From NCBI GenBank assembly GCA_001795385.1, contig MGOU01000022.1, forward strand, positions 33,566 to 97,565: 64,000 bases of DNA. Reading direction: 5' to 3'. The translations under genes and the position numbers were made by a program. How positions within the stretch are numbered: position 1 is the stretch's first letter; each line of letters starts with the position of its first letter. This stretch comes from Clostridiales bacterium GWD2_32_19 (GTDB lineage: Bacteria > Bacillota > Clostridia > Lachnospirales > UBA12420). Shown piece by piece: positions 35,609 to 45,998 of the stretch. The notes under the pieces are model-generated. The model saw only the letters and a list, made by a program, of their open reading frames with translations. It did no database searches and was not told the origin of the DNA.

Positions 35609-38266
35609 ATGGTTAATAATATTGGACTAAATGAAGAACAAGTTGTTGAGTCAAGGAATAAATACGGTAGTAACAGCCTAAGTGAAGTGAAATCCGAAGG
35701 CTTTTGGGACAAGTTAAAGAATAATTTTGGCGATCCAATGATAAGGATTCTGTGTGTAGCACTTGCTATAAATGTAATTTTTGCATTTATGGGACAAGCT
35801 CATTGGTACGAATCTGTAGGAATTGCTATAGCAGTGATATTGGCTACATTTGTATCTACATTTTCAGAATATAGAAATGAAAATGCATTTCAAAAGCTTC
35901 AAGAAGAAGCATCAAGGATTAAATGTAAAGTATTCAGAAGTGGTGAAGTTTTAGAACTTCCTATTGATGATTTAGTAGTTGGTGATGCTGTTATACTTCA
36001 ATCGGGTGACAAAATACCTGCAGATGGAGTATTGACTACTGGAGTGATAAAGGTTGACCAATCTGTACTTAATGGAGAAAGTAAAGAAGCTAATAAAAAA
36101 GTAATGTCTGAAGATTATGTTGAACAAAGCATAGGACTGGATTTTCTTAATGAATATAAAGTTTTTAGGGGAACGGTGGTTTGTTACGGAAATGCAGTAA
36201 TGAGTATAACAAATGTAGGAGATAAAACTGTATATGGAGAGATAGCAAAAGAGCTACAGACAGAAGATGACCGTGATTCGCCATTAAAAGTTAAATTAAG
36301 CAACCTTGCTAATGGTATTAGTAAGTTTGGTTACATAGGAGGTATTTTAATTGCACTTGCATACCTATTCCAAAAAATAGTTATTAGCAATGGATTTGAT
36401 ATTGGTAGAATCGTGGAGTACTCTTCAAATTATATGGTAATATTAAATAATGTTGTTGAGGCTGTAATACTTGCTGTTATAATAATAGTTATGGCTGTAC
36501 CTGAAGGACTGCCACTAATGATTGCGATTGTTTCTGCAATTAATATGGGAAAAATGCTCAAAGATAATGTTCTTGTTCGTAAAATTTCTGGAATTGAAAC
36601 TGCGGGTAGTATAAATATCCTTTTTAGTGATAAGACAGGAACAATTACAAAAGGACAACTTGAAGCTATTGTTTTTGTAGATGGTGAAGGTAAAGAATAT
36701 AAAAACCATTCAGAGGTAGTTGGTGAGCTAGGTAAGCTATTGTCTCTTGGTATACAGTATAATACGGATGCCATGATTACAGGTACACATCCAAATATCA
36801 AAGTAATTGGTGGTAATGCGACTGAGCGTGCTATCATAGGCTTTGTAGCTGGAAAGGGTGGAGAAGTAACAGCAGAAACTAGTAATAAGATACCGTTTAA
36901 CAGTGAAAATAAATACTCAGCTGTCCAAGTGCATGGTGATTATGAATGTACATTAATTAAAGGTGCACCTGAACTTATTATATCAAAATGTTCAAACTAT
37001 TTTGATAATAATGGTAATAAGAAACCTATTACTGATTTCAAAACTATAGAAGGAAAAATAGATAAACTTGCGGAACGTGCAATTAGAGTATTGGCGCTTG
37101 CAGTTAGTGATTGTGAACTTGGAGAATGTAGTTTGCCAGAAGGAGAATGGACATTACTGGGAGTAATCGGTATACGTGATGAAGTTAGACCTGAATCTAT
37201 TTCAGCAATTACTGAGGTACAAAATGCCGGTATTCAGGTGGTTATGATAACTGGTGACAGAAAAGATACAGCAATTGCAATAGCAAAAGAAGCAGGATTA
37301 CTGAAAGATAGTACAGATATTGTTATTACATCAGATGAATTACAACAAATTTCAGATGAAAAACTAAAGAAGATGTTACCTAATATTAGAGTTGTAGCAA
37401 GAGCTTTACCTAGTGACAAGAGTCGATTTGTAAAAATTGCTCAGGAACTAAATCTTGTAGTTGGTATGACAGGAGATGGAGTCAACGACTCTCCTGCACT
37501 CAAAAAGGCTGATGTAGGATTTGCAATGGGTGGTGGAACTGAGGTAGCAAAGGAAGCAAGTGATATAGTTATTATGGATGATAACTTTAGTTCGATTGAG
37601 AAAGCTATACTTTATGGACGTACAATTTTTAATAGTATACGAAAATTTATAATTTTTCAATTAACAATTAATGTTACAGCCGTTATGGTTTCATTTATAT
37701 CGCCACTTTTAGGGCTAGGAAGTCCACTTTCTATCACACAAATTTTATGGATCAACTTAGTAATGGACACACTAGCTGCATTAGCATTTGGTGGAGAGAT
37801 AGCACTTAAGAGATTTATGAATGAAAAACCAAAACGTAGGGATGAAAATATTGTAAGTCCATATATGTGGAGCTCGATATTTGTAGGAAGTACCTGGATT
37901 TTTATAATTAGTATGTTTTTATTATTATCACCTTATGCAGCAACACTATTCCGCTCAAGTGATACAAGTGCTTACTTATTAACTGGATATTTCACTTTCT
38001 TCGTATTTGCAGCAGTGTTCAATGCATTTAATGCAAGAACAGAAAAGATAAATTTATTAGAAAATATTACACAAAATAAAGGTTTTTTAAAGATTATTTT
38101 ATTGATATCAGGAGTTCAATTAATAATGACATATTTTGGAGGCGTAATTTTAAGATGTTATGGACTTTCATTAAACGAATTGTTATTAGTTATAATACTT
38201 GCAATGTCAATTATACCTGTTGATATAATAAGAAAGTTAATTAAAACATCAAAAGAATCAAACTAA
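35609..38266 (+). CDS. P-type Ca2+-transporting ATPase (P2 type)
   Basis: DKTGTIT phosphorylation site, TGDGVNDSPALKKADVGFAMG hinge, VPEGLP in TM4, 10-TM layout. Confidence 0.9.
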   Translation: MVNNIGLNEEQVVESRNKYGSNSLSEVKSEGFWDKLKNNFGDPMIRILCVALAINVIFAFMGQAHWYESVGIAIAVILATFVSTFSEYRNENAFQKLQEEASRIKCKVFRSGEVLELPIDDLVVGDAVILQSGDKIPADGVLTTGVIKVDQSVLNGESKEANKKVMSEDYVEQSIGLDFLNEYKVFRGTVVCYGNAVMSITNVGDKTVYGEIAKELQTEDDRDSPLKVKLSNLANGISKFGYIGGILIALAYLFQKIVISNGFDIGRIVEYSSNYMVILNNVVEAVILAVIIIVMAVPEGLPLMIAIVSAINMGKMLKDNVLVRKISGIETAGSINILFSDKTGTITKGQLEAIVFVDGEGKEYKNHSEVVGELGKLLSLGIQYNTDAMITGTHPNIKVIGGNATERAIIGFVAGKGGEVTAETSNKIPFNSENKYSAVQVHGDYECTLIKGAPELIISKCSNYFDNNGNKKPITDFKTIEGKIDKLAERAIRVLALAVSDCELGECSLPEGEWTLLGVIGIRDEVRPESISAITEVQNAGIQVVMITGDRKDTAIAIAKEAGLLKDSTDIVITSDELQQISDEKLKKMLPNIRVVARALPSDKSRFVKIAQELNLVVGMTGDGVNDSPALKKADVGFAMGGGTEVAKEASDIVIMDDNFSSIEKAILYGRTIFNSIRKFIIFQLTINVTAVMVSFISPLLGLGSPLSITQILWINLVMDTLAALAFGGEIALKRFMNEKPKRRDENIVSPYMWSSIFVGSTWIFIISMFLLLSPYAATLFRSSDTSAYLLTGYFTFFVFAAVFNAFNARTEKINLLENITQNKGFLKIILLISGVQLIMTYFGGVILRCYGLSLNELLLVIILAMSIIPVDIIRKLIKTSKESN

Positions 38267-38331
38267 CTATAAAACTGTAAAATATATTACAGTTCTATAT
38301 AAAAAATCTAAATATAAAAGGAGTGTTAACA

Positions 38332-38913
38332 ATGGCAATAAGCTTACAAAAAGGACAAAAAGTAGATTTGACAAAGTCAAATCCTGGACTTACTAAGATA
38401 GTAGTAGGATTAGGTTGGGATACAAATAAATATGATGGTGGAAGTGCATTTGATTTAGATGCAGCAGCATTTTTAGTTACAGAAACAAGTAAGGTTGGTA
38501 GCGATGGAGATTTCGTATTCTACGGTAATGTAAAGCATACTAGCGAGTCTGTTATTCACTTAGGAGATAATTTAACAGGTGCTGGTGATGGTGATGATGA
38601 ACAAGTTAAAGTTGATTTATCAAAGGTACCTGCTAATATTCAAAAATTATGTTTTACTGTTACTATTAATGAAGGAGAAACACGCAAACAAAACTTCGGA
38701 ATGGTTTCTAATGCATTTATAAGACTTGTTGATGAAGTTAGTAACACTGAATTAATGAGATATGATCTTGGAGAAGAATTTTCTATAGAAACAGCGGTTG
38801 TTGTAGCTGAATTATATAGGAATGGTACTGAATGGAAATTTAATGCTATAGGTAGTGGATTCCAAGGTGGACTTAAAGCTTTATGTGCAAACTATGGAAT
38901 AGATGTAGCTTAA
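38332..38913 (+). CDS. terD: TerD-family stress protein
   Basis: [13 protein letters not shown], Ca2+ motif [16 protein letters not shown]-terminal WKFNAIGSG. Confidence 0.92.
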
Positions 38914-39085
38914 TATAATTATTTAAAATAAAGGCTTTGCTGTGCGACTGTCAAGAAGCAATTGGCAAAGCTTTTACGCTTTACGAAGATAAGAGACCTG
39001 AAAGGTTTTAAAATGAGTTAGAAAAGCTTGAAATTCCATTATTAGATAATAACTGGAAAGCAATAAAAAACAAGGAGGAATAGAT

Positions 39086-39703
39086 ATGTCAATTAGTTTA
39101 CAAAAGGGACAAAAGGTTGATTTAACAAAGGGTAATTCAAGTTTGAAAAGAGTAATGGTAGGTTTAGGCTGGGATGAAGTACCTCAAACTATGGAAAAGA
39201 AGGGATTACTAGGGAGTCTTATGGGCGGAGGAGCAAAAGGTCAAGCAATTGATTGTGATGCATCTGCAATTTTGTGTAATGCTAGTGGAAAGATGAATGA
39301 AAAAGGAGATGTTATTTATTTCAGCAACTTGGCGCATAAAACTGGATGTGTAAAGCATATGGGAGATAATTTAACAGGTGCTGGTGATGGTGATGATGAG
39401 CAAGTATTTGTTAATTTGGCTGATGTACCATCAAATTATGAAAAAGTAGTATTTGTAGTAAATATTTATCAGGCAGTACAACGTAAACAACATTTTGGTA
39501 TGATACAAAATGCTTTTATAAGAATTATTGATGCTGATAATAATGCAGAATTATGCAAATTTAATTTATCAGAAAACTATGATAATATGACATCAATGAT
39601 ATTTGGTGAAATATATCGTTACCAAAATGAATGGAAGTTTAATGCAATGGGACAGGCTACTACAGATGCAGGTCTTTCTGAATTAGTGCAAAAATACAGT
39701 TAA
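39086..39703 (+). CDS. terD: TerD-family stress protein, second paralog
   Basis: [36 protein letters not shown]. Carries an extra Gly-rich insert after the first strands. Confidence 0.92.
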   Translation: MSISLQKGQKVDLTKGNSSLKRVMVGLGWDEVPQTMEKKGLLGSLMGGGAKGQAIDCDASAILCNASGKMNEKGDVIYFSNLAHKTGCVKHMGDNLTGAGDGDDEQVFVNLADVPSNYEKVVFVVNIYQAVQRKQHFGMIQNAFIRIIDADNNAELCKFNLSENYDNMTSMIFGEIYRYQNEWKFNAMGQATTDAGLSELVQKYS

Positions 39704-39804
39704 AACTCTTGATTAAGACAAACAAGTTTTCTGAACCTGTAGTGAATAACACTAAAGATTGGCAAACTTAAAACATATGACAACTTTGGCTGAGAGGGAT
39801 AAAT

Positions 39805-40719
39805 ATGAAAAGATTGAAAAATGCATTGGCGATAAAATGGATTAATTGTTTAAAGAAATATAAAATTAAATACGCGGGTTTAATTTTATTATCAATTTTT
39901 GAAATAGCCATATCTGTAGCACAACCTATATTATTGGGTAAACTTATATATTCATTAACCACCAAACAGTACAACGAAATAATAAGCTTTACTTTATTGT
40001 TATTTACTTTCAAAGCTCTTGAAATATTTGTAAGCGCAATTAAATTTTATTTGTTGCATTACTTGAGAAATATGATAAATGAAATTATTAGGACAGATAT
40101 AGTTGTTAATATGTTAAGAAAGGGAGTTAAGTTACCGATTACTTCAATAAATGAAAGATTAAAAGAAATAGTTGAGATTACAAGAAAAGGTGATGAGATA
40201 ATAGAAGTTGCAATAAAATCTCTGAAACTAATTGTAATAACTGTTATTGTGACAGTAACTACTAATTGGATGATTGGTGGAATTATGCTGTTGTATATGT
40301 TTGTATATTACCTTGGTATTACGGTAATGTCTAATCCTATACAAAAAGATGTAGCTTCTATGAAAACATCGGGAGATCAATATTTTAATAGGATTCATAG
40401 TTTATATGATAACCCAGATTCAGAGGAATTGGGAAAACTTAGGGTTGTTACAAGATTTTTTAGAAAGAGCAGGATAGTTTATAACATAAATTACGATAAA
40501 ATGCTTGTTGTTTCTGGAATAATAGAGACTTTATTTCAATTATTAATATATGGGTCATTAGCAATGATGTATTTTAATAATAAAATATCCATAGACATTG
40601 TTATATCTTGTATAACTTATTTTACAATAATTACAGTAGTGTACAAGGAAATAAGTATGTTCAATATAGGTATGAAGCAACTTAATATATCTTTTGAGAG
40701 AATTAATGAATTAATGTGA
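39805..40719 (+). CDS. ABC-exporter-type transmembrane domain protein without an ATPase domain
   Basis: N-terminus LKKYKIKYAGLILLSIFEIAISVAQPILLGKLI and a 6-TM layout typical of the type I exporter TMD. Ends at ISFERINELM, the usual TMD-NBD junction. No NBD gene is adjacent. Confidence 0.55.
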   Translation: MKRLKNALAIKWINCLKKYKIKYAGLILLSIFEIAISVAQPILLGKLIYSLTTKQYNEIISFTLLLFTFKALEIFVSAIKFYLLHYLRNMINEIIRTDIVVNMLRKGVKLPITSINERLKEIVEITRKGDEIIEVAIKSLKLIVITVIVTVTTNWMIGGIMLLYMFVYYLGITVMSNPIQKDVASMKTSGDQYFNRIHSLYDNPDSEELGKLRVVTRFFRKSRIVYNINYDKMLVVSGIIETLFQLLIYGSLAMMYFNNKISIDIVISCITYFTIITVVYKEISMFNIGMKQLNISFERINELM

Positions 40720-40818
40720 TAGACCAAAGAGATAATCAATAGAGAAAGTGTTAAAGAGCTGTGATAGGCTCTTTTTCTTGAACTAAATAAAAAATATTAT
40801 TATAGGGGAGTGATTTAA

Positions 40819-41574
40819 ATGTTTAATCCAGATTTTTCGAATGCTATAAAGGTTATTGATAGATCAGAAGGCAAAAGTGGTACAGTTTTCGAAGTTATAG
40901 AATATACAAAGCCAAGGGCAGGAGAACAGCTAAGGCAGGTTAGGATATATATAAAAGAGGGTTCGATAATTATGCAATCTGGGGCTCTGCAATTTATGAA
41001 AGGTCAGATAACGATGGATGCAACAGTGAGCGTTGCTACAGCTTTAAAAGGTTTTTTTACTAGTAAGGGAAGTGGTGAGTCTTTGGTTACTCCCAAGTAT
41101 ACAGGAAAAAATGGAGAAATATATCTTGAGCCTACAAATAATTATTACTATGTCTTAGAACTACAAAACGATGAAATAATTCTTGACGATGGATTGTTTT
41201 ATTGTTGCGAAGACAGTATTGCATTATCAGTGCACACAAATACAAATGTTTTGGCGGGGTTATTTTCTGGAGATGGTTTTAGACAACCAAAAATCACTGG
41301 AACCGGAGTTGCGGTGTTAGAAAGTAATGTTCCTTTTGAGGAGATATTAATATATCAATTAAATAATGAAACATTAAAAGTTGACGGAAATTTTGCAATG
41401 GTTGTAAGGGGAAATATTCAAACAAAAATTGAAAAATCATCAAAGTCAATAATAGGTAGTGCCAGAAGCGGAGAGGGTATTTTACAGACATATACAGGAA
41501 CGGGAGAAGTATGGCTCGCACCAGCGAAGAATTATAAACCACTTGATACTTTACTGCTAACGAGGAGCATTTAA
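40819..41574 (+). CDS. AIM24-family (DUF124) protein
   Basis: About 250 aa, beta-rich. Segments IYIKEGSIIMQSGALQFMKGQITMD and GEGILQTYTGTGEVWLAP resemble the TIGR00266/AIM24 family. Confidence 0.6.
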   Translation: MFNPDFSNAIKVIDRSEGKSGTVFEVIEYTKPRAGEQLRQVRIYIKEGSIIMQSGALQFMKGQITMDATVSVATALKGFFTSKGSGESLVTPKYTGKNGEIYLEPTNNYYYVLELQNDEIILDDGLFYCCEDSIALSVHTNTNVLAGLFSGDGFRQPKITGTGVAVLESNVPFEEILIYQLNNETLKVDGNFAMVVRGNIQTKIEKSSKSIIGSARSGEGILQTYTGTGEVWLAPAKNYKPLDTLLLTRSI

Positions 41575-41582
41575 ATGTATAT

Positions 41583-41644
41583 ATGTCAATCAAATTTCAT
41601 AAGTTCAAATTTTGATTGACATGAAAAAACAAAAATGGTACAAT
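41583..41644 (+). promoter_or_regulatory. 12-bp inverted repeat overlapping a near-consensus promoter
   Basis: atgtcaatcaaa (41583-41594) pairs with tttgattgacat (41611-41622). TTGACA 41616-41621, 17 nt, TACAAT 41639-41644, with TG. Confidence 0.65.
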
Positions 41645-41667
41645 AATTTATACGAGGTGTGATTAAA

Positions 41668-42132
41668 ATGTTTGGAATGTTTAAAAGAAAGAGTGAAAAC
41701 GAAAGCAATGAAAAAACAGACACACAGCAAGATACAAAATTACAAACAAGAATAGTTATGGAAAATGCTAAAGCTTCTTTAAAAGAAATAGAAAATAAAC
41801 TATATCAAATTAAAGATAAATATTTATTTTCGAATCTACTTTTGTTTTTATCATATTATAATTTTATAATTGAATTTTACAATAAAAACATGGAAAGTAT
41901 AATTTCAGTAAGAGAGCTGTTATTATTAAAATATATAGATATGATAAAAGATATACTAGCTAATTTTGATGAAATAACGGCTACAGTAGTTCAAAAAAAT
42001 GAACTTCTGAAAGCATTGAAAACTGTAAATGAAAAGTTGAATTCGGCAATTAAGAACATAAAAGAACAAGCAGAAATCGATTTAAGTGTTGACTTAAAGA
42101 CACTGCAAGATTTGATAAAATTAGACTTTTAA
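41668..42132 (+). CDS. Hypothetical coiled-coil protein in the position of xpaC
   Basis: 155 aa from the ATG after gaggtg. Sits immediately upstream of the TelA-like gene, as xpaC does with yaaN in B. subtilis. No confident sequence match seen by eye. Confidence 0.5.
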   Translation: MFGMFKRKSENESNEKTDTQQDTKLQTRIVMENAKASLKEIENKLYQIKDKYLFSNLLLFLSYYNFIIEFYNKNMESIISVRELLLLKYIDMIKDILANFDEITATVVQKNELLKALKTVNEKLNSAIKNIKEQAEIDLSVDLKTLQDLIKLDF

Positions 42133-42157
42133 AAACATCACAAAGGAGTTGTTTGCT

Positions 42158-43345
42158 ATGGGATTTGAGAACTTATTAGAAAATATCGAGGGGGATGAAA
42201 AAAAATCTCTAATAAAAGAAGAAACTAATTCTCTTGAGGTAGTGGAGGTAGTTAAAGAAGCAGAACCTGCTGTACCAGTTGGAACCAAACGAGAGGTGGA
42301 CTTATCTAAGTTTAGTGAGGAAGACAGAGAAAATATAAACAAAATGAAGGATAATATGAGTTTGACTAGTTCTAATGATGTTGCAAGTATAGGTACTGAA
42401 GCTCAAAGTAACATTGCAAAATTTGCAGACGGTCTTTTAGAAGGTGTTAAAACAAAGGACACTGGTGTTGTTGGTGATAATCTTACCACACTACTTACTA
42501 CTATAAAAGGTGTTAATCTAGAAGGATTAAATGGAAATAAATCATTTATATCAAAAATTCCATTTTTAAGATCAATTAGTAATAGTGTAGTAGGTGCGAA
42601 GATAAAACTTGAGAATGTCACTGAGACTGTAGATAATATTGTAGTTGCACTAGACACAGCAAGAAAAGAGTTAATAAGAGATATAAATGTATTAGATGTC
42701 TTATATGATAAAAACCTTGAATACTTACATAACCTTGAGTTGTGTATAGCTGCTGGAGAGCTAAAGTATAACGAACTTTCTGAGACAGTGTTAGTTGAAC
42801 TGAAAAGCAAAGCTAATCAAACTCAAGATATGGTAGATATTCAAAAGTATAATGATTTTGCACAAATGTTGTCAGAAGTAGAAAAAAGAATATATGATTT
42901 AAAATTAAGTAGGGAGATTGCTAGACAGACAATGCCCCAAATACGCATTATCCAAGGTAATGATAAGATATTATCAAATAAGATTCAGACGAGTGTACTT
43001 ACAACCATTCCAATCTGGAAAAATCAAATAGCGTTAACAATATCTTTAAATAAACAAAAAACAGCTTTGGAATTACAAAAGAAAGTTTCGGACACAACTG
43101 AAGATTTATTAAAACAAAATGCTAATATTTTAAAAATGAACTCTATTGAAATTGCAAAAGAAAGTGAAAGAGGAGTTATAAGCATCGAGACATTAAAGGA
43201 AACACACACTAGATTAATTGAAACGATAGAAGAATCTATGAAGATTTATTCAGAAGGTCGCCAAAAACGTCAGATGGCAGAAAAGGAACTTACTCAGATG
43301 GAAGCAACTCAAAAACAAAAACTCCTAGAGCTTAGAGGTAAATAA
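42158..43345 (+). CDS. telA: TelA-family toxic anion resistance protein (YaaN/YceH-like)
   Basis: About 395 aa, all helical. Shows the typical TelA layout, with N-terminal acidic lead-in, LLEGVKTKDTG and a central LELCIAAGELKY segment. Confidence 0.8.
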   Translation: MGFENLLENIEGDEKKSLIKEETNSLEVVEVVKEAEPAVPVGTKREVDLSKFSEEDRENINKMKDNMSLTSSNDVASIGTEAQSNIAKFADGLLEGVKTKDTGVVGDNLTTLLTTIKGVNLEGLNGNKSFISKIPFLRSISNSVVGAKIKLENVTETVDNIVVALDTARKELIRDINVLDVLYDKNLEYLHNLELCIAAGELKYNELSETVLVELKSKANQTQDMVDIQKYNDFAQMLSEVEKRIYDLKLSREIARQTMPQIRIIQGNDKILSNKIQTSVLTTIPIWKNQIALTISLNKQKTALELQKKVSDTTEDLLKQNANILKMNSIEIAKESERGVISIETLKETHTRLIETIEESMKIYSEGRQKRQMAEKELTQMEATQKQKLLELRGK

Positions 43346-43373
43346 GTAGAACGAGATTAATGAAGGTGATATA

Positions 43374-44186
43374 ATGGATAAAAAAGAATGTCTAAATTTG
43401 ATAAATCAACATTTTGAATTACAAAGTTGTATAGCATCATTAAAAAACCCAGATTTAAAATTGAAGAGTCATACCTTCTTTTATAATAATCTTTTTAAAG
43501 CGGTAAAAGAAATAAAGATAATAAGAGTTAAATCTAAAAATCCAAAAGATGATATTAAATTTGATATATATTATGTATCTGATGAATTCGAAGGATTATA
43601 TCATGGATATTTCAGGATAAAGGATGAATCAGATTCGGCAAGTAGGATATTTAAAACTGTAAGTAAGATGTGTACAGATTTGATCGAATATATGTATTAT
43701 GTGTACCAAAACAGTGAATTGCTCAAAATATATTTGATATCTTTAGATATTCAAAATGCAATAGAGCAATGTAATACAAAAGATGTTGATGGAGTATTTG
43801 AAAAAATCAAAAAAAATATATATTCAGAAATTGCAGAATGTGATCAAACTGAACTAGAATGTTCCATTTTAGATAGGTGGTTTAATAGAAAATATATATA
43901 TAACTTTATAATGTTTAACTCGAAATGTTCGGAAATAGTGAAGATGTTTCTACTAAATTTGCTTTCACCTAAGTATTCGAACAATATTTGTATGATTAAC
44001 CAAAATAGTATTATAAAAAATTACATTTATGTAAGTTCAAGTTCGATATATTTTAACGGTAATCATGAACTGAATGTATTTAGTATACTAGATAGTGCTG
44101 TTTCTTTAGAATTTATATTGTTTGTAAAATTTGATTTTAATTTTGAAGGTGGAGTTAATATTGGGAAAACAGTTGATAAAAGGTGA
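43374..44186 (+). CDS. Hypothetical 270-aa protein
   Basis: RBS gaaggtg. No recognised domain. The 3' end overlaps the next gene. Confidence 0.55.
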   Translation: MDKKECLNLINQHFELQSCIASLKNPDLKLKSHTFFYNNLFKAVKEIKIIRVKSKNPKDDIKFDIYYVSDEFEGLYHGYFRIKDESDSASRIFKTVSKMCTDLIEYMYYVYQNSELLKIYLISLDIQNAIEQCNTKDVDGVFEKIKKNIYSEIAECDQTELECSILDRWFNRKYIYNFIMFNSKCSEIVKMFLLNLLSPKYSNNICMINQNSIIKNYIYVSSSSIYFNGNHELNVFSILDSAVSLEFILFVKFDFNFEGGVNIGKTVDKR

Positions 44187-44712
44187 AAAGATAGATATAA
44201 GTAAAATAAATAGTTCTTCTAATAAATTTGAATTAGTTATAACATACAAAAACAATAATGAAAATTCATATGATATCGACACTTTTGTATGTGTATGTGA
44301 AAATAATAATCGAATAAATAAAAAGGAGATTATTTTTTATAACAATGTTGAAAATACTGATAAAAGTATATGCTTTGTGGACTGTTTTACTGATAATACA
44401 GAGAATAAAAAAACATTTCAAATAAATTTAAACAGTGCAAACATTTCAAAACTAATTATTGGGTACTCAATTTATAAAAGTAATCTATGTAAACAAAGTT
44501 CTGCTGATATTACGCTTAAACTAATTAACAGAACACTACAAACAGAAGTGTTCACAATGAGTATGCAAAGTGACATTATAAATAATAATGCAGGTGTTGT
44601 AGGGGAAGTTTACAAATATAAAGATGTTTGGAAGTTTAATGCTATTGAATATAATTCTCCAAATGATTTGATGAGTACAATTAAGACTTTATTTAATGTG
44701 ATTTTATATTGA
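44161..44712 (+). CDS. Degenerate TerD-like protein lacking the Ca2+-binding motif, TTG start
   Basis: LIKGEKIDISK start, YDIDTFVCV, IIFYNN, final VGEVYKYKDVWKFNAIEYN. The GDNLTGxGDGDDE loop is replaced by DCFTDNTENKKT. RBS ggtggag. Confidence 0.65.
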   Translation: MGKQLIKGEKIDISKINSSSNKFELVITYKNNNENSYDIDTFVCVCENNNRINKKEIIFYNNVENTDKSICFVDCFTDNTENKKTFQINLNSANISKLIIGYSIYKSNLCKQSSADITLKLINRTLQTEVFTMSMQSDIINNNAGVVGEVYKYKDVWKFNAIEYNSPNDLMSTIKTLFNVILY

Positions 44713-44725
44713 TAGTTTTATAAAT

Positions 44726-44750
44726 GGGGTCAAGTTGACCCTGTTTTGTT
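44726..44750 (+). terminator. Weak terminator-like hairpin
   Basis: gggtc-aagtt-gaccc followed by tgttttgtt. Confidence 0.45.
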
Positions 44751-44951
44751 ACTATTTTGACAGCAGGTAGGAGATGTTTGTGTAAAGAATAGGTCAGTGT
44801 GTTAACTAAAATAAGTAATTTGTAGAAAATATGTAAAAATAACTATTAGTAAATGTTGTTTTTGGACAAAATGAGAAAAAACTTTTGGTTGATTTTTTAT
44901 GACACTTTAACTATAATAAGATAGTGTCAAAAATTTAATATAGAAATAAAA

Positions 44952-45040
44952 GAGAGATTGCTTCGTACACCCTCCTAGAGGACCCCTATATCTAGGTTTG
45001 CACAATACACTAACCAAGTCTTAGGATGTCGCAATGACAA
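44952..45040 (+). repeat. Disrupted fragment of the nested-hairpin repeat
   Basis: gagagattgcttcg and gtcgcaatgacaa (the right-hand arms of the family) are separated by 62 unrelated nt. Confidence 0.6.
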
Positions 45041-45049
45041 AGAGGGGGA

Positions 45050-45123
45050 AGATAATATTGATAAAATATATTAAATAAAAAGGGATAGTGTAGTATTTAG
45101 TACTATGAATATTTTACACTACC
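45050..45123 (+). promoter_or_regulatory. Conserved 74-nt leader element, copy 1
   Basis: 70 of 74 nt identical to 47997-48070. Internal dyad ggg(a)tagtgta..N..tacactaccc. Ends 23 nt before the start codon. Confidence 0.8.
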
Positions 45124-45146
45124 CTAATAGAAGTGGAGGGATATAA

Positions 45147-45998
45147 TTGGATAAGATAGCAGTAATAGCAGATATACATGGGAATCTGACAGCGCTAGAG
45201 GCTGTAATAGAGGATATAGAGTCAAGGGGAATAGATAGAATATTTTGCCTAGGAGATATGATAGGAATAGGACCTAGTGCGCATGAAGTTTTAAATATTA
45301 TTAAAGACAAATGTGAGGTTGTTATATTTGGAAATTTAGAAAAGTGGCTTGCAGAGGTAGATCTGGGTAAAGAAGACCGTGAACAAGAGAGACAAAGGAT
45401 AATATGGAATAGGTCATTGCTTTCAGAAGAAGAAAATAAGTACATCAAATCTTTGCCTATGATACACGATATGTACATAAGCGGTAGACTAGTTAGGTTT
45501 ATGCATTCATCTCCAGATAATGTTTTTAATAAAACTTATTATATTGATGATGAAACTGATAAGATAAGACTCTTCTTGCCAACTGACAATACATCAATTA
45601 ACAAAATCGCAGATGTTGTTGTATATGCAGATATACATGAGCAATTACTTCAAAATTTTTATCACAGAACACTTGTAAACATAGGAAGTGTTGGAAATGC
45701 AATAGAACTTGTGCTGGATGAAAAATATAATGGAGATAGTAAGGAAACAACAAATGCGATGTACTGTATAATAGAGGGAAGTATTGGAAAAAAAGAGAAT
45801 AAGACAAGTATAGGTTTCCAATTAGTTAGAGTACCATATAATATAGAAAAGGAATTGGAAATATCTTCAAAAAAGAATATGCTTGAATTTGAAGAATATA
45901 AAGAAGAAATAACAAAGGGATTGTATAGAAATCTTAATTATCTAAAAATAAAATATAAGCAGGTAAGGCAGATGCAAGGGAAACGGTATATGCAATAA
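45147..45998 (+). CDS. Metallophosphoesterase (calcineurin-like), TTG start
   Basis: IAVIADIHGN, FCLGDMIGIGP, later GN..and H motifs. Confidence 0.8.
   Translation: MDKIAVIADIHGNLTALEAVIEDIESRGIDRIFCLGDMIGIGPSAHEVLNIIKDKCEVVIFGNLEKWLAEVDLGKEDREQERQRIIWNRSLLSEEENKYIKSLPMIHDMYISGRLVRFMHSSPDNVFNKTYYIDDETDKIRLFLPTDNTSINKIADVVVYADIHEQLLQNFYHRTLVNIGSVGNAIELVLDEKYNGDSKETTNAMYCIIEGSIGKKENKTSIGFQLVRVPYNIEKELEISSKKNMLEFEEYKEEITKGLYRNLNYLKIKYKQVRQMQGKRYMQ

Follow-up and report, generated by a model that had tools for sequence, protein, structure and literature searches.

A conserved four-gene block of Clostridia couples a protein of no described family to a TerD-fold protein without the canonical Ca2+ loop

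We analyzed a stretch of 64,000 nucleotides (nt) from Clostridiales bacterium GWD2_32_19 (contig MGOU01000022.1, positions 33,566 to 97,565 of the forward strand), hereafter the window, in which four consecutive genes encode a small protein of 157 amino acids (aa), TelA, a 270-aa protein and a variant TerD protein that we call TerDv. On balance, we lean towards the view that 41616-44746 is one operon, in which the 270-aa protein and TerDv are co-produced and form a complex, within a Clostridial version of the xpaC-telA/telA-terD envelope-stress unit. An earlier note on this DNA had described the 270-aa protein as an orphan translationally coupled to a TerD paralog that has lost its Ca2+ site. 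Below we present the junction between the two genes, the nature of each protein and the conservation of the block, and weigh other explanations where the evidence touches them.

Results

The 270-aa gene and TerDv share a conserved junction

The last two genes of the block overlap by 26 nt, and TerDv begins with a TTG codon preceded by a Shine-Dalgarno (SD) sequence, GGTGGAG, lying inside the upstream open reading frame (ORF). All these details had been given in the earlier note, and all agreed with the window sequence when checked (Table 1). The SD stands 6 nt before the TTG and encodes the "GG" of the residues FEGG in the 270-aa protein. In the list of ORFs the TerDv frame opens at a TTG at 44131, which is not the real start. 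We took 44161 instead, because position 1 of the Pfam TerD profile aligns with residue 1 of the protein started there, and because in-frame stops in 2 other loci (L017 and L015) rule out any start but the equivalent one.

We found the same junction in 13 further genomes or contigs, which shows that the arrangement is not a matter of chance. The 2 genes overlap by 16-26 nt in 11 of the 14 junctions and are separated by a gap of 1-2 nt in the 3 others (L017, L020 and L022, where the 270-aa gene stops before TerDv starts); the pair is thus tightly coupled in its gene architecture throughout, as had been proposed for the window. TerDv starts with TTG in 9 cases, GTG in 3 and ATG in 2, and GGNGGAG or a close variant is found 5-9 nt before the start in 14 of 14. 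From this layout, we infer that the 270-aa protein and TerDv are probably made by coupled translation. We also observed that the nucleotides AAAGGTGAAAA at the stop codon of the 270-aa gene (within 44161-44186) are near-invariant in nine genomes; they form a short dual-coding stretch, specifying the K-G-E-K strand of TerDv together with the tail and stop codon of the 270-aa protein.

The same overlap might be explained by programmed frameshifting that joins both ORFs into one fusion protein, considering that in 13 of the 14 loci TerDv is read in the +1 frame with respect to the 270-aa gene, or the ORFs might be functionless remnants in decay. However, every locus has a conserved SD and start codon at the TerD N-terminus, L022 departs from the relative frame of the others, the upstream gene ends before the TerDv start in the 3 gap loci, and the junction alignment contains no conserved slippery site. 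As for decay, both genes are full-length and under purifying selection, with a low ratio of nonsynonymous to synonymous substitution rates (dN/dS), in all 16 TerDv-bearing loci aligned. On the junction evidence and the low dN/dS we rejected both ideas, which we regard as very improbable.

TerDv has the TerD fold and a dismantled Ca2+ site

TerDv matched the Pfam TerD profile (PF02342) over positions 1-180 of 187 with 81.6 bits (cut-off 25.3, E 6e-23), compared with 247-279 bits for the canonical TerD paralogs of the window. Its AlphaFold model, of high confidence (predicted local distance difference test, pLDDT, 89.3; predicted template modelling score, pTM, 0.86), consists of 12 strands and one C-terminal helix. 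Foldseek retrieved TerD structures, all with probability 1.0 and template modelling (TM) scores of 0.61-0.77: 9a6r chain B, which we take to be SCP2/YceC of Bacillus subtilis (E 3e-11, TM 0.77), 2kxt (E 4e-8) and 3ibz (E 5e-8). By both the profile score and the Foldseek probabilities, TerDv has a genuine TerD fold, and the landmarks by which it had been recognized, LIKGEKIDISK, DIDTFV, FYNN and VYKYKDVWKFNAIEYN, are all present. Like the solved members of the family (2kxt/2kxv of Klebsiella pneumoniae, 3ibz of Streptomyces coelicolor and 9a6r_B), it forms the same beta-sandwich and keeps the LxKGxK N-terminal strand, the DxD and FYN motifs and the C-terminal GEhYxxxxxWKF strand.

The acidic Ca2+ loop GDNxTGxGDGDDE is replaced in TerDv by the shortened DCFTDNTENKKT, which bears out the earlier reading, and this loop is lost in 16 of 16 TerDv orthologs. 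Both canonical paralogs of the window (38323 and 39086) keep a 13-residue loop of this type. We then aligned the 16 orthologs with nine canonical TerDs encoded in their loci and with the sequence of 2kxt. For Klebsiella TerD, PMC8779313, citing Pan et al. 2011, gives residues 40, 41, 42, 78, 79 and 89 as ligands of Ca1 and residues 29, 82, 84 and 88 as ligands of Ca2, and every ligand position named in this text follows that list. Results showed that TerDv has lost seven of the 10 ligand positions and keeps only the equivalents of D40 (14 of 16 orthologs), L41 (as a hydrophobic residue) and D42 (16 of 16); all 10 are kept in the nine canonical TerDs. Among the lost positions, D78 and N79 are not conserved in the 16 orthologs, G82 is deleted in all of them and G84 in 13. 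D88 is variable (Lys in 7 of 16), the Trp at position 29 is changed, although 13 of the 16 still have an aromatic residue there (Tyr, Phe or His), and E89 has become Lys in 15 of 16.

In the model of TerDv the loop is reduced to a 4-residue turn between strands 70-76 and 81-89. The loss of ligands, together with the cut from 13 residues to 4, makes the loss of Ca2+ binding very likely, and TerDv would be expected to act independently of Ca2+. The near-invariant lysine, K84 in the window copy, probably stands in for the metal against the retained Asp38 and Asp40. TerDv therefore differs from the TerD family by its lost loop, by the Lys at Glu89, by its coupling to the 270-aa gene and by its place in a clade of its own.

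This clade unites all TerDv orthologs with a support of 100/100 on a long stem. Their terminal branches measure 0.2-1.4 versus 0.08-0.3 for canonical TerDs, and are thus 3-10 times longer. A TerDv profile scored 229 bits on the window copy and at most 99 bits on the next best protein in 399 genomes of the same class, and so the variant was not found there without the 270-aa gene.

TerD paralogs without the Ca2+ loop, 289-298 aa long, were also observed in other Clostridia, at L024 (G390:C37) and L034 (G076:C86). Their N-terminus is extended by ~110 aa with many Asn, Ser and Thr residues, and in the L024 protein the loop is replaced by SIGEDHNSSLKRAYD. Considering that they fall in a clade apart from TerDv, their loop was lost independently. 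Like TerDv, they coexist with canonical copies and have the acidic loop replaced; unlike TerDv, their N-terminus is extended and they have no partner from the 270-aa family. A further TerD paralog without the Ca2+ loop is TerA of the terZABCDEF operon. Finally, canonical TerD domains (264-268 bits) were seen inside frames of 458-461 aa in Marinisporobacter balticus and in a Bacillota metagenome-assembled genome (MAG) (G401:C20:65692-66255 and G404:C39:2527-3090), which may be TerD fusion proteins.

The 270-aa protein represents a rare family under purifying selection

We found no match for the 270-aa protein in Pfam, NCBIfam, PHROGs or PADLOC, and 11 members of its family gave no consistent weak Pfam match even at E<=5, and no TerD match. 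Considering the PDB and BFVD as well, the protein belongs to no described family. In this sense the orphan label was appropriate; taken literally it was not, because about 25 homologs exist, with 33-75% identity, every one of them in Clostridia. A word-indexed search of 5.8 billion proteins returned 6 homologs (50-75% identity), an exhaustive phmmer search of 1.84 billion cluster representatives 6 matches (lowest identity 33%) and a profile search 10 proteins, while a scan of one genome per prokaryote species located the gene in 11 genomes, all Clostridia. Carriers include the cultured Marinisporobacter balticus DSM 102940 and Anaerophilus nitritogenes MJB2, the others being Alkaliphilus, Anaeromicrobium and MAGs. 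A metagenome scan added 12 further contigs. No member was found on viral contigs, and of 399 sampled genomes belonging to the same class, none but the window's own carries the gene. No remote relatives emerged from the phmmer, profile, class-genome or viral-contig searches.

The family aligns from end to end with no disruption of the frame and with 22 invariant columns. Pairwise dN/dS of the gene is 0.07-0.20, revealing purifying selection on the protein; the gene is therefore real but rare. Its invariant polar residues are K24, D27, S32, Y108, Y120, K173, N182, K184 and K190, and the motif FNSKCSExVKMF lies among them.

AlphaFold2, given an alignment of 11 sequences, produced a confident model (pLDDT 88.1, pTM 0.85), with 4 of 5 models at pLDDT of at least 85. 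The modelled protein starts with an alpha/beta part containing a four-stranded sheet (residues 1-100), continues with a seven-helix core (residues 103-202) and ends, over the last 65 residues, with a beta-beta-beta-alpha-beta-alpha arrangement. Foldseek gave nothing significant, the best matches being E 1.4 (TM 0.2) in the PDB and E 0.33 in BFVD. The model thus has no match among solved structures or viral predicted structures, and we do not claim a new fold from it. Three apparent leads were discarded. The designed TIM barrels 7smj and 7mcc, suggested by a PDB sequence-profile match, were an artefact in which four weak repeats of one 40-residue stretch were summed. RalF and the CYTH/VTC4 tunnel enzymes, suggested by weak Foldseek hits, were noise (probability at most 0.09, TM at most 0.21), and the protein has no ExExK signature. 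YceG_bac (PF14266), usually found next to TelA in related Clostridia, reached an hhalign probability of 0.2%, so that the 270-aa protein is unrelated to it.

The earlier note had also raised the idea that the 270-aa protein combines a novel N-domain with another TerD fold, decayed even further than that of TerDv. All that speaks for this is a short C-terminal likeness, FDFNFEGG, to the TerD terminal motif WKFNAxGxG. Comparison of the family profile with TerD by hhalign gave 0.2%, the model is alpha/beta with a helical core and contains no 11-strand, all-beta sandwich, and Foldseek finds no TerD. Moreover, the conserved C-terminal F-D-F-E-G-G of the family is encoded by TTT GAT TTT GAA GGN GGA G, in which the 2 glycines come from the SD of TerDv. 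The tail that follows, VNIGKTVDKR, is the invariant N-terminal strand of TerDv, MGKQLIKGEK, read in another frame; it is modelled with pLDDT below 50, and it is missing where the stop codon falls before the TerDv start (L017, L020, L022 and P0009-P0011). Read at the nucleotide level, the "FEGG" likeness is a by-product of overlapping coding. The second TerD fold did not survive this comparison, and we give it almost no credence.

The four genes stay together as one block

The order 157-aa gene, telA, 270-aa gene and TerDv is contiguous in 11 of 11 species genomes, in several assemblies and in every metagenome contig with enough flank, and the 270-aa gene and TerDv always co-occur. Wherever the flank is long enough, gene 1 immediately precedes telA (41-73% identity). 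Across loci, identity is 60-79% for TelA, 39-75% for the 270-aa protein and 27-68% for TerDv, the fastest-evolving member of the block. The genes around the block vary from housekeeping genes to toxin-antitoxin pairs and other Ter genes, and in the nearest relative (L012/L007, 75% identity) the block is found on the upstream side of the Ca-ATPase and TerD genes and not, as in the window, on the downstream side. These differing surroundings, and the relocated block of L012/L007, indicate that the four genes move as a unit.

In the window, a promoter-like site precedes gene 1 and a terminator-like hairpin with a T-run follows TerDv (Table 1), so that the last four genes of the cluster look like one transcription unit. 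The promoter-like site is the best-scoring of the region but is a consensus match only, in a region whose total of such sites is no higher than in shuffled sequence; the hairpin is the only terminator-like site on the + strand within 38200-45200.

Table 1. Positions of the block, its junction and Ca2+-site remnants, and the neighboring genes in the window
Feature	Position	Strand	Remarks
Promoter-like site	41616..41644	+	TTGACA, 17 nt, TACAAT, extended TG; consensus scan, 11/12
Gene 1, 157-aa soluble helical protein	41659..42132	+	XpaC position; no transmembrane segment
Gene 2, TelA	42149..43345	+	Pfam PF05816, E 2e-99, 333 bits (cut-off 30)
Gene 3, 270-aa protein ("orphan")	43374..44186	+	TGA stop at 44184-44186
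SD of TerDv, GGTGGAG	44148..44154	+	Inside the last codons of the 270-aa gene
Gene 4, TerDv, 183 aa	44161..44712	+	TTG start codon 44161-44163
Overlap of 270-aa gene 3' end and TerDv 5' end, 26 nt	44161..44186	+	
D38-I39-D40, retained DxD half of the former Ca1 site	44272..44280	+	Klebsiella TerD D40-L41-D42, numbering from PMC8779313
DCFTDNTENKKT	44380..44415	+	Shortened stand-in for the Ca2+ loop
K84 of TerDv	44410-44412	+	At the place of Ca1 ligand Glu89; aligned to Klebsiella TerD numbering from PMC8779313
Terminator-like hairpin with T-run	44722..44746	+	Intrinsic type; 10 nt after the TerDv stop
P-type Ca2+ ATPase	35609-38266		Homolog in L007 with cation-ATPase Pfam domains, 80% identical
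Canonical TerD	38323-38913		279 bits
Canonical TerD	39086-39703		247 bits
304-aa membrane protein	39805-40719		Weak ABC_membrane match
AIM24	40819-41574		

The 304-aa membrane protein found between the canonical TerD genes and AIM24 has no ATPase domain. In the nearest relatives it is encoded directly downstream of the four-gene block (L012:6097-7008 and L007:6202-7113, 74% identity), and it may belong to the Ter neighborhood too.

Neighbors of the block and the readings they suggest

Several genes assigned to the predicted Ter "biosynthetic" set were seen next to the block in relatives: an ATPgrasp_Ter gene directly after it in L005 and L006, C-C_Bond_Lyase in L005 and L007 and, in L005 additionally, PRTase_2/TRSP, StiP/PELOTA_1 and HAD (L005:3170-10135; L007:7164-8324). 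All three TerD genes of the window's genome (1.97 Mb, 97.6% complete) lie within the window, and the genome contains no TerC (PF03741), ATPgrasp_Ter or C-C_Bond_Lyase; the tie of the block to this set is thus facultative. These neighbors raise the possibility that the 270-aa protein is an enzyme or small-molecule binder for a predicted Ter-linked nucleoside-like metabolite, with TerDv as its regulatory or targeting subunit. The many invariant polar residues of the 270-aa family fit such a role, and an excess of Lys would suit an anionic ligand. On the other hand, the window's nearly complete genome does without ATPgrasp_Ter and C-C_Bond_Lyase, most other loci have none of the "biosynthetic" genes within 10 kb, and the 270-aa model matches no enzyme or nucleotide-binding fold. 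We consider this reading improbable.

Genes of the toxin-antitoxin type also border the block in places: HicA/HicB and UPF0175 in L006 (L006:1223-2365), and an NTP_transf_2/NTase_sub_bind pair directly upstream in L002-L004. Only in part of the family do they lend the block a defence-island flavor. Phage inhibition and colicin resistance are known effects of plasmid ter operons, and the pair could accordingly be a sensor or effector add-on through which the TelA/TerD machinery becomes an anti-phage or abortive-infection system, a role that would also suit 2 proteins evolving faster than TelA. Against it, PADLOC matches none of the proteins of the cluster, no copy lies on viral contigs, dN/dS is well below 1 and the flanks are housekeeping genes in most loci. 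An anti-phage function thus appears improbable to the same degree as the metabolite reading.

TelA itself has a second copy in the window's genome, on another contig (G000 contig C24, L035:3307-7028, minus strand, 236 bits). The order there is a 244-aa protein, a 562-aa solute-binding-protein/vWA fusion and TelA. The 244-aa protein has N-terminal transmembrane helices, occupies the XpaC position and has no Pfam match.

Discussion

A Clostridial relative of the TelA and TerD stress units

The block resembles 2 known gene arrangements. With the xpaC-telA pairs (xpaC-yaaN of B. subtilis, and those of Listeria and Enterococcus faecium) it shares a small protein followed by TelA on one strand, but its gene 1 does not have the transmembrane helices of XpaC. 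With yceG-yceH(telA)/yceCDE(terD) it shares TelA followed by TerD on one strand, but it has no YceG, an extra gene lies between TelA and TerD, and the TerD is the one without the Ca2+ loop. In related Clostridia, the genomes G064 (from the same order) and G230 encode YceG_bac, TelA and then three canonical TerDs, indicating that TelA directly followed by TerD is the common form there. The xpaC-telA pair of E. faecium has been linked to cell-envelope antibiotic stress (PMC6811118).

Association with canonical TerD, a P-type Ca2+ ATPase and AIM24 is a further trait that the block has in common with the Ter system, and in some relatives this extends to ATPgrasp_Ter, PRTase_2/TRSP, C-C_Bond_Lyase, StiP/PELOTA and HAD. 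It differs in that TerC, the ATP-grasp and the lyase are absent from the window's genome, and that no Pfam family made for Ter-associated proteins recognizes the 270-aa family. This stress-response system was reportedly defined by comparative genomics by Anantharaman, Iyer and Aravind in 2012 (Mol Biosyst).

We propose the following scenario for the operon and the complex. A new gene would have been inserted between TelA and a TerD copy, which then evolved fast and lost its Ca2+ loop. One mRNA would give rise to all four soluble proteins, with coupled translation from a weak TTG or GTG start keeping the 270-aa protein and TerDv in fixed proportion. The 2 would form a heteromeric complex in which TerDv, as a Ca2+-insensitive adaptor of TerD fold, links the 270-aa protein with TelA and with the Ca2+-responsive canonical TerDs, here the neighbors of a Ca2+ pump. 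The outcome would be an added output of, or input to, the envelope and ion stress response.

The genomes that carry the block give this scenario its Ter context. Canonical TerD genes occur in 6 of 6 module genomes examined, versus 9 of 398 genomes with any TerD in the class sample, counts that are descriptive only as the module genomes are related and not independent. The five other module genomes have 1-5 canonical TerDs and exactly one TerDv each; the canonical genes lie on other contigs in these 5 relatives, and about 5 kb upstream in the window's genome. The TelA of the module is the only TelA in 4 of the 5. From this co-occurrence, and from the sole TelA in 4 of 5 hosts, the block seems to serve these organisms as the TelA branch of a system based on TerD.

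The non-independence of those genomes is one of several points that weigh against the scenario. No conserved RNA structure spans the junction (z-score -0.03, 0 consensus pairs), and a search there for an RNA hairpin that would mask the SD found none. TerDv could then start independently from its own strong SD, with no RNA structure to enforce coupling; any coupling would work by proximity and re-initiation, not by unmasking of the SD. The homolog searches returned no fusion of the 270-aa protein with TerD. Some TerDv orthologs keep acidic residues in the shortened loop (EEDDDEE in L016), and weak cation binding may persist in these acidic-loop proteins. The likeness of gene 1 to XpaC is also faint: it matched PF10112 (Halogen_Hydrol/XpaC) with E 7e-4 and 20 bits, below the cut-off of 29.8, its L017 ortholog scored a sub-threshold 19.4 bits and 2 others gave no match, and BLASTP showed no similarity between gene 1 and the 244-aa protein at the XpaC position of the second TelA locus. 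We also looked for charge complementarity between the 270-aa protein and TerDv, and dropped it because the isoelectric points vary with no pattern.

A bolder version goes beyond the co-produced complex. In it, the 270-aa protein would have a new fold and be the obligate partner of a TerD adaptor held in a "metal-loaded-like" state by a lysine in place of Ca2+, and their heterodimer would form an unrecognized output or sensor arm of the TelA/TerD system. We regard this as unlikely, though a little less so than the metabolite and anti-phage readings.

In conclusion, the block is a rare accessory module of the Ter/TelA system, with an undescribed protein family at its center and a narrow range, being present in few Clostridial lineages. 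Ter, TelA and TerD genes occur widely and have a bearing on resistance to tellurite, phages and colicins as well as to antibiotics that act on the envelope; to our knowledge, their molecular mechanism has still not been established after decades. The module offers a simple soluble unit of four proteins, in which a TerD-fold protein is tied by gene architecture to one partner and to TelA. TerDv, with a Lys at a metal-ligand position, amounts to a natural "Ca2+-site knockout" whose canonical paralogs are at hand for comparison in one and the same cell, and the 2 cultured hosts make the module experimentally tractable. If the heterodimer is true, a TerD domain would for the first time have a defined protein partner, which would offer a handle on Ter function.

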